From positions 12,204 through 76,203 of the forward strand of contig JAISJW010000007.1 in assembly GCA_031261175.1 (NCBI GenBank): a stretch of DNA of 64,000 nucleotides, in the 5' to 3' direction. This document shows positions 6,616 to 6,990 of this stretch, one piece after another (within the stretch, counting starts at the first letter, position 1; each line of letters begins with the position of its first letter). This DNA comes from Lactobacillales bacterium. GTDB taxonomy: Bacteria > Bacillota > Bacilli > Lactobacillales > Streptococcaceae. Under the pieces are notes generated by a model. The model was not told where the DNA came from. It saw nothing but the letters and a program-made list of their open reading frames with translations, and made no database searches. Made by a program: the position numbers and the translations under genes.

Positions 6616-6865
6616 TTTCGCCCGCGCAGTTTATTTAGAAACTCTGAAAATCCCACGCGGTGAAACTCGCTCTTATAAGGAAATAGCGATTACGGTTGGT
6701 CGCCCTACGGCTTCGCGCGCCGTCGCTCAAGCCTTGAAACACAATCCCTACCCGATTACAATCCCCTGTCACCGCGTAATTTCTTCTCGCGGACAGACCA
6801 TCGGCTATTTCGGTGCCGCTGGCGCTAGCAAAGGTGCCGCTTTATTAGCCTCAGAACAAAAGTGA
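6593..6865 (+). CDS. MGMT-family protein, DNA-binding/active-site domain only (90 aa)
   Basis: Contains the IPCHRVI active-site motif of O6-alkylguanine-DNA alkyltransferases. TTG start with an AGGAGG RBS 9 nt upstream. Overlaps the end of the rluA-like gene. Confidence 0.75.
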   Translation: MNLENVSDFARAVYLETLKIPRGETRSYKEIAITVGRPTASRAVAQALKHNPYPITIPCHRVISSRGQTIGYFGAAGASKGAALLASEQK

Positions 6866-6990
6866 CTCCAAATGACCACAAATCTCTCAAAAACACCCTA
6901 AAATAGACAGTTTGAGTCAGTATATATTCTATACTGACTCAAACTGTCTATTTTAGGGTCATATTTCAAAGTTTTCGGTCGTTTAGAGTA
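6865..6990. repeat. nested-palindrome intergenic element, family A copy 1
   Basis: Terminal inverted repeats actccaaatgacc / ggtcgtttagagt. The central hairpin at 6896..6958 is perfect, with a 29-bp stem and 5-nt loop (ccctaaaatagacagtttgagtcagtata tattc tatactgactcaaactgtctattttaggg). It starts at the stop codon of the MGMT gene. Second copy at 15334..15460. Confidence 0.8.

Follow-up and report, generated by a model that had tools for sequence, protein, structure and literature searches.

Nested-palindrome repeats adjoining stop codons in a Lactobacillales genome: a lineage-specific superfamily with terminator-like placement

Terminator-like interspersed palindromes are known under names such as REPIN, SPRITE and TRIT. 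The elements described here, two copies of which lie in a 64,000-nt stretch of the genome of a Lactobacillales bacterium (assembly GCA_031261175.1, contig JAISJW010000007.1, positions 12,204 to 76,203; hereafter the window), are a lineage-specific addition to this kind, for which we infer a terminator function and mobility. What appears to distinguish them is the coexistence of several stem-swapped families with a second hairpin class, together displacing most ordinary terminators. In mode of action their nearest counterparts are the pneumococcal SPRITE and the mycobacterial TRIT, which are likewise lineage-restricted, sequence-conserved, over-long, stop-hugging hairpins, considered to act as terminators and with no known mobilising enzyme. 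SPRITE is a Firmicute interspersed repeat of ~100 nt forming an over-long hairpin with A-run/T-run ends, which lies near the 3' ends of coding sequences (CDS), is enriched in convergent contexts and is restricted to one species group; no target-site duplication (TSD) or transposase has been identified for it, and co-option as a terminator has been proposed (PMC3049150). SPRITE, however, has a single oriented 18-bp duplex and a long U-rich tract, whereas the element here forms a nested, nearly symmetric rod of ~60 bp that includes a conserved bubble of mismatches, comes in several stem-variant families and mostly has no long U-tract; the sequences are dissimilar. TRIT, from Mycobacterium (Gardner et al. 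2011), is a genus-restricted, sequence-conserved, palindromic, bidirectional hairpin of ~150 copies, held within very tight limits of distance from the stop codon and in part lying within the CDS; most of the stable structures at gene ends are TRITs (PMC3152330). It is short (~50 nt) with one conserved sequence, in contrast to the 135-nt, nested element with at least six stem families found here in a different phylum and with dissimilar sequence.

In REPINs (Bertels & Rainey 2011), a long hairpin arises from inverted half-units, compensatory changes are frequent, a genome may have several families and the elements persist vertically (PMC3116915). The present elements likewise have two inverted halves around an apex, each half an imperfect palindrome. 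They differ from REPINs in that no RAYT/Y1 is present in the 96%-complete genome, in that the half-units are of ~60 nt with 25-nt spacers, compared with 20-35 nt for REPs, and in that the stems vary and the spacers and apex are conserved, the reverse of the conserved REP and variable spacer of REPINs. The ERIC/IRU elements (~127-bp imperfect palindromes of enterobacteria), Correia/CREE, RUP and RPE-type miniature inverted-repeat transposable elements (MITEs), reviewed in PMC3184786, resemble ours in size (~105-170 bp), in forming a long hairpin when transcribed, in occupying transcribed 3' regions and in their proposed effects on mRNA fate. That group has defined terminal inverted repeats (TIRs) and TA duplications or known insertion sequence (IS) relatives, whereas here there is no TSD, the phylum is different and the sequence dissimilar; with neither a TSD nor an IS with matching TIRs in the assembly, derivation from an IS in the manner of MITEs is not supported.

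The two window copies belong to one family, termed family A, and were recovered where the earlier note on this DNA had placed them. Copy 1 (6865-6990) has imperfect outer arms (6865-6878 / 6977-6990; GACTCCAAATGACC against the complement TACTCTAAACGACC, with 3 mismatches) around an inner stem (6896-6924 / 6930-6958) that is, as that note had described, a perfect 29 bp, closed by a 5-nt loop (6925-6929). Copy 2 (15334-15460) has perfect 14-nt outer arms (15334-15347 / 15447-15460) and 30-nt inner arms (15365-15394 / 15400-15429) with 1 mismatch, about a loop at 15395-15399. The copies are 69% identical, and the predicted structure of each, whichever strand is folded, is a single long rod, with ΔG between -63 and -82 kcal/mol and z between -13 and -18 versus dinucleotide shuffles, none of which was equally stable. 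The reported closeness to stop codons is likewise apparent: the TGA (6863-6865) of the upstream MGMT-like open reading frame (ORF) shares its last base with the first base of copy 1, and the TAA (15327-15329) of the GyrI-like gene lies 4 nt upstream of copy 2. The stop (15463-15465) of the convergent asparaginase-family gene lies 2 nt past copy 2, which forms the entire gap between the stops of these two genes. Two of the claims made in the earlier note need qualification. Where the copies differ, both arms were said to have changed together; pairing is indeed kept, but the 7 positions at which both arms changed and pairing is retained in both copies all fall within a single 11-nt block, an A-run/T-run flip beside GACAG, and the arm differences are essentially one block event, not many independent compensations. 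The proposed terminal inverted repeats exist as arms, but are merely the base of the hairpin and vary in sequence among families.

The true object is a genome-wide population of ~170 hairpin repeats, extending well beyond two copies of one family. In the genome (1.70 Mb in 33 contigs, 96.45% complete, 89% coding), the apex motif GTATA-N5-TATAC occurs at 25 sites and an nhmmer profile finds 76 superfamily loci, ~70 of them full nested palindromes of ~135 nt; family A, recognised by its ACTCAA GC block, accounts for 14 full copies. Flanks are unrelated, and the repeat is a dispersed one, not a local duplication, as the earlier note had supposed when setting it against the alternative of only two copies made by segmental duplication. 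When each left half is displayed over the reverse complement of its right half, a shared plan can be read: an A/T flank, an outer arm consisting of a GC-rich block and a TGACA-like block, a ~25-nt A/T-tract spacer with a small GC island, a TTTTG hinge, the inner arm and an AT-rich apex. At least six stem families differ in their GC stem blocks (CCGCCC, 20-25 copies; TAGCCC, 14; ACTCAA, 14; AGGCCC, 7-9; GCACCG, 6; GAGCG, ~4; plus singletons), inter-family chimeras occur (C7:15532 and C11:71119), and only a subset of families has GT(A/G)G ahead of the GC block. When family consensuses are compared, the hinges show no differences, and identities are 0.72 for the apex, 0.54-0.68 for the spacers and 0.36-0.54 for the stems. 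Mean identity within families is 0.68-0.83, and the closest pairs, which lie on different contigs, are at most 0.94 identical, implying that the copies are old and dispersed; sister copies are not generally neighbours.

Fold and covariation were analysed in an alignment of 63 sequences. In the long-hairpin fold 85% of cells are paired, rising to 94% in the inner helix, changes on both sides are found in 47 of 51 pairs across families, and the covariation score is 0.51, whereas controls with slid partners do not exceed 0.135. Within each half, the outer arm is in addition a match to the inner arm (68% paired versus 28-53% slid), most strongly over a ~7-bp core, and the element is thus a set of four related boxes that change together between families. 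The sole asymmetry of the element is a bubble of ~13 x 13 nt formed by the spacers, which are unpaired in most families, T-tracts lying opposite T-tracts; family A differs in that its GC island pairs, leaving a bubble of ~17 x 17 nt. Within families we observed 55 complementary double changes, compared with ~8 expected under independent mutation of the arms, although single mismatches (362) still outnumber them. With respect to the bubble, every family includes copies with the 5-nt loop one way round and copies with it the other. Counted by element strand the mismatches are symmetric (134 G.T versus 139 A.C), with a weak skew when counted in the sense RNA (126 G.U versus 95 A.C), and the orientation of the elements with respect to transcription is random (32 against 23). 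The combination of strand-symmetric mismatches with a lack of orientation bias argues against a strand-specific RNA and for an object that is symmetric at the DNA level.

These data support the proposal in the earlier note that selection or a fold-back process keeps the hairpin, given the excess of double changes, the changes on both sides of most pairs and the occurrence of the loop both ways. Fold-back by template switching is a good explanation because the loop, too, is found in both orientations; switching of the replication template between inverted repeats is reported to homogenise arms and invert spacers (PMC8604942, PMC8794818). Three signatures of such switching are seen here, i.e. 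block-wise conversion of arms, free inversion of the loop and clean deletions of hairpins, the last exemplified by the inner hairpin at 20581-20673 and by the hairpin of a neighbouring element in the left copy of the C27 composite described below. Template switching is thus probably the main reason that the arms change together. Selection is still needed to account for the retention of bubble, hinges and apex alongside drifting stems.

The elements are placed at gene ends with considerable precision. They occupy 55 tandem, 10 convergent and 2 divergent contexts (background 1168, 113 and 116, respectively), and the median distance to the upstream stop is 3 nt, versus 92 nt to the next start. 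Of 59 gene ends, 25 have the stop at a distance of 66-72 nt from the element centre, with TAA running into the terminal A-run, and at 14 further gene ends it occupies fixed sites inside the outer arm (the TGA of AATGAC, the TAG of TAGCCC or TAGGCC, and the TGA of GTGACTCC). With respect to annotation, the elements therefore account for many gene ends in which the stop codon is inside a repeat. Insertion beside existing hairpins was considered and rejected, with 4 adjacent pairs versus 5.8 ± 2.3 expected.

When the genome was scanned for long hairpins, with an 18-bp minimum for the stem, 122 loci emerged, 95 of which are outside the superfamily, in further modular repeat families of 65-85 nt (class 2). 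The class-2 hairpins are near-perfect, with stems of 18-36 bp, and their modules are shuffled between families; the outer block (CTAATCGC, CTACTG, TTGTTCA, GCGGAC, GGGGGA or ATTCC) is followed by a T-run, a GC island, a second T-run, a variable 8-mer and TTCGA. Their contexts are convergent in 30 of 95 cases and divergent in 1 of 95, just under half of the distances measured to an upstream stop are at most 10 nt (median 19 nt), and the next start is at a median of 103 nt. In placement, the class-2 hairpins behave like bidirectional terminators.

Comparison with relatives suggests that the repeats have taken over the niche of most ordinary terminators. The density of hairpins with 12 bp or more is 59 per 400 kb in this genome, versus 77 and 53 in two complete relatives, whereas those of at least 18 bp number 28.7 versus 7 and 1 in the same relatives, the hairpins of which are ordinary A-run/stem/T-run terminators. 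In the present genome ~109 hairpins are unique, compared with ~185 in repeat families. The asparaginase-family locus provides an individual example: orthologues in three relatives have short conventional terminators after the gene, whereas here the stop leads directly into copy 2 and then, on that (-) strand, into UGUUUUAUUU. The matching overall density, the paucity of unique hairpins and the asparaginase locus together imply that the repeats replaced ordinary terminators and did not merely supplement them. Repeat families account for ~60% of the terminator-like hairpins in this 1.7-Mb genome, whereas in sister genera they are ordinary terminators.

With respect to means of spread, no Y1/RAYT (PF01797) match was found in the genome, by a search that was positive in 6 of 14 reference genomes used as a control, and of nine other transposase families covered only IS110 was represented, the assembly yielding no TnpB and no IS630 (DDE_3), rve, DDE_Tnp_1, IS256, ISL3, IS6 (IS240) or IS1595 transposase; with 33 contigs, a multi-copy IS might sit in gaps. 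The sole IS is a single-copy, AT-rich IS110-family RNA-guided transposase of 391 aa (C11:63794-64969(-); L043 808-1983). It was rejected as the cognate enzyme, having no similarity to the element and lying 0.6 kb from one, with a small ORF and its own terminator between. The search proposed in the earlier note for a cognate transposase with matching TIRs was thus negative among the families covered, and the same note's likening of the elements to MITE/REP sequences is appropriate for a dispersed palindromic family but does not extend to a TSD or a cognate transposase. No TSD was seen in the sequences beside the GC block, which are A-runs, T-runs or unrelated, TA/TAA occurring only on the stop-facing side. 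The only tyrosine recombinases are XerC and XerD, both at equivalog level, integrase_gron being far below the cut-off. A 16-mer, AAAAAATAAAAATATA, is present on both sides of the IS110, and a 19-bp hairpin (ATATAGTCACAGATATT...) starts inside the copy on the 5' side, from which the IS110 may have inserted at the foot of the hairpin.

At a locus beyond the window, two hairpin elements lie side by side as a 182-nt composite, which is present twice, with 94% identity, as direct repeats exactly 7,000 bp apart, at C27:20898-21080 and 27898-28080 (L104 1399-1580 and 8399-8580). The pair brackets the gene for a WxL cell-wall-binding protein and an 1832-aa ORF without Pfam hits, the bracketed genes being inserted between genes for an HMGL-like synthase and an amino-acid kinase. 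The WxL domain, like the GGAGG ribosome-binding sites of this genome, suggests a Bacilli-like Firmicute. The arrangement looks like integration or duplication via recombination at the elements. It is the only such case found, and local hopping or cassette bracketing was rejected as a rule. A partner nuclease gene enclosed by copies was likewise rejected on the strength of this one near-identical bracketing pair, which encloses none.

The superfamily is, as far as can be seen, confined to this sparsely sampled lineage. The BLASTN comparison with related species that the earlier note had advised did not recover the major family from any of 30 relatives, and a covariance model was equally negative in 100 genomes that represent 10 further genera of this bacterial family. 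A superfamily pattern of 18 bases, able to match 48 of the genome's own copies, had only non-palindromic chance matches in ~185,000 species representatives and the JGI metagenomes; the only other contig with the flanking protein, from sequencing run SRR14710919, is identical. No other member was present in the PheS/PheT 90% clusters, and no housekeeping relative with more than 90% identity was found among 15 billion sequences.

Family size, architecture, position, arm covariation, lineage restriction and the absence of the searched transposase families are established; we infer transcription into the element, termination or stabilisation, template switching and past mobility. The explanation that we consider probable on balance is that of a non-autonomous, lineage-specific interspersed palindromic repeat that occupies the terminator niche and is kept palindromic by template switching. 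The element would have proliferated to ~75 copies in several stem-variant families, accompanied by ~95 of the shorter class-2 hairpins. Lying directly behind stops, copies should be transcribed as the 3' end of the upstream gene, and the RNA would snap into a rod of ~60 bp, blocking or ending transcription from either side and/or protecting the 3' end, such that the repeats would largely have displaced ordinary short intrinsic terminators. The symmetry of the palindrome would be maintained mainly at the DNA level, with template switching between the arms homogenising them block by block and occasionally flipping the loop, and selection, by the element or the host, would retain the A/T-tract spacers, the TTTTG/CAAAA hinges and the AT apex. 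If so, the genome is a natural case of interspersed hairpin repeats in the terminator niche, in which coexisting stem families offer a built-in comparison of how long rods end or protect transcripts without a strong U-tract, how palindrome symmetry is maintained through template switching, and how repeats spread without a RAYT or IS.

A stable GC-containing hairpin is present directly 3' of the stop codon. In convergent contexts, the 6 nt outside the hairpin include 4 or more T (counted as A on the mirror side) at 9 of 20 element ends. Several observations weigh against this explanation. Of 50 tandem cases, only 9 have a sense-downstream T-run of at least 4, and 28 have one of at least 3; the mirror A-run, next to the stop codon, is present more often (24 of 50; p = 0.003), and no U-tract follows either window copy on the + strand. 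A plain terminator role leaves the conserved mismatched bubble and the apex unexplained. No empty site, TSD or transposase was found, and past mobility is suggested by dispersal to ~75 unrelated gene ends. Furthermore, gene contexts come from a crude longest-ORF caller, and the control for hairpin density comprises 2 x 400 kb from relatives of other genera and lower G+C. The A-run/T-run pattern is unlike the outcome of selection for a classical sense-strand U-tract; the excess of A-runs would reflect either stop codons built from the element's terminal A-run or counterselection of the U-tract where read-through is needed. The rods may not depend on a strong U-tract and may serve as a pause, a barrier or a protector of the 3' end; alternatively, the T-run may have disappeared at sites that require read-through, or many of the copies may merely be tolerated. 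Terminator action is thus plausible, but not canonical.

The last of these options leads to the alternative that survives best, which we regard as possible though doubtful, namely that the elements are selfish or neutral MITE-like DNA, i.e. old insertions of a lost mobile element tolerated only just behind stops and with no role as terminators or stabilisers. Croucher et al. argue likewise for the pneumococcal repeats (PMC3049150), and the age of the copies (68-83% identity, none above 94%), the lack of a sense-side U-tract in most tandem contexts, the lack of an orientation preference and the presence of truncated and hairpin-deleted remnants are all in keeping with it. Against this, ~17 kb of hairpins (~9% of the intergenic DNA) has been kept in a 1.7-Mb genome that is 89% coding, some convergent gene pairs have nothing but an element between their stops, and hairpin density equals that of the relatives with 2- to 3-fold fewer unique terminators, which indicates substitution, not addition.

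A bolder proposal, and to our minds a rather improbable one, is that this reduced genome hosts a self-propagating population of structure-defined hairpin modules, for which structure-specific copying machinery would have supplanted over half of the terminators originally present. If this were true, the stem would be the part of the module free to drift, giving four covarying boxes and chimeric modular families, and the fixed parts would be the mismatched A/T-tract bubble with its GC island, the TTTTG/CAAAA hinges and the AT apex. The machinery would then be neither RAYT/IS200-605 nor any transposase family searched for, but a host replication/repair route or an unrecognised enzyme.

We think it unlikely that the elements are DNA-level protein-binding modules like REP/BIME (with gyrase, IHF or Pol I sites), bound or bent by a nucleoid or topology factor. 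The covarying outer and inner boxes of each half (68% versus 28-53% slid), the phased T5-6/A5-6 tracts with their small GC island, the greater conservation of spacers than of stems between families, and the strand symmetry would all suit such a role. The boxes, however, differ wholly between families (CCGCCCC, GGCCCC, GACTCC, GCACCG, GAGCG), which a sequence-specific protein could not follow, and strict placement at the stop codon is unexpected for a topology site.

Integron attC sites, such as the 123-126-nt Vibrio cholerae repeats (VCRs), are conserved in structure and not in sequence, have two box pairs and an unpaired centre, and start at the preceding stop. A structure-defined recombination site marking cassette boundaries, whether attC-like or a target of XerCD or an IS110 RNA-guided recombinase, would accordingly share with the present elements sequence-variable but structure-conserved hairpins after stops, and the unpaired bubble with two inverted boxes recalls a folded attC. 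The direct repeats that bracket the WxL gene pair, inserted between housekeeping genes, and the presence of one IS110 0.6 kb from an element also fit. We nevertheless regard this as quite unlikely: the genome has only ordinary XerC/XerD and no integron integrase (IntI), the elements are scattered over most contigs among housekeeping genes in both orientations and not in one-orientation arrays, the boxes, ~27 bp apart, are spaced much too widely for a core of 6-8 bp, sister copies do not as a rule adjoin one another, and the IS110 is not inserted in an element. Integron attC sites in particular were rejected on the grounds of the missing IntI, the missing array, the two orientations and the box spacing.

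The very stable, covarying fold and the slight sense-strand excess of G.U over A.C (126 versus 95) would befit a strand-specific structured RNA, i.e. a small RNA gene or a cis-regulatory RNA of the 3' untranslated region, but this is highly improbable in view of the absence of orientation bias to the upstream gene (32 versus 23), the equality of G.T and A.C by element strand (134 versus 139), the free flipping of the loop, and the lack of an Rfam match and of promoter geometry. The Rfam search gave 0 hits in the window, with only sub-threshold hairpins of miRNA-precursor type at permissive E-values. Two further candidates were rejected: pairs of uptake signals, because the GC blocks differ between families, and a sigma-70 promoter within the hairpin (TTGnCA with a -10 in the apex), for which the spacings are 12-14 or the -10 is poor.

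Superfamily and class-2 features of the window are collected below.

Hairpin repeats of the superfamily and of class 2 located in the 64,000-nt window
Feature	Position	Remarks
Family-A element, copy 1	6858..6996	Nested arms, mismatched spacers; TGA of MGMT-like ORF in outer arm
Family-A element, copy 2	15330..15465	Fills convergent gap between GyrI-like and asparaginase-family genes
Superfamily member, TAGCCC/GGCCCC-stem family	3390..3526	Shared architecture and apex GTATATATTCTATAC, stems differ; adjoins stop of 716-aa ORF 3526-5676(-)
TAGCCC-family remnant	20581..20673	Outer arms and spacers retained, inner hairpin deleted
Degenerate superfamily member	36231..36366	37 of ~70 positions still paired
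Superfamily member, GCACCG-stem family	46766..46901	Apex GTATAAAATCTATAC
Class-2 long hairpin, GCGGAC/CGGACTTTTCGCGTTTTGTGGTC family	11089..11150	Second copy at 62829-62922
Class-2 long hairpin	62829..62922	Same family as 11089-11150
Class-2 long hairpin, CTAGTCGCATCCAAGCCGTTTTTTAACTAATTC family	45406..45478	At least 10 copies genome-wide

The window contains a further class-2 hairpin at 57147-57221. A small serine recombinase (Resolvase domain, 185-aa frame; ~35147-35704, -) lies in a defence island ~0.5 kb from the degenerate superfamily copy and is probably unrelated to the hairpins. Beside copy 2, the asparaginase-family protein (15463-16398, -) ends in ...KEWLDSHGFD*, whereas its orthologues in three relatives are ~8 residues longer (EWLxNYxxTRxxPLxxK*); its C terminus, next to the element, may have been remodelled.

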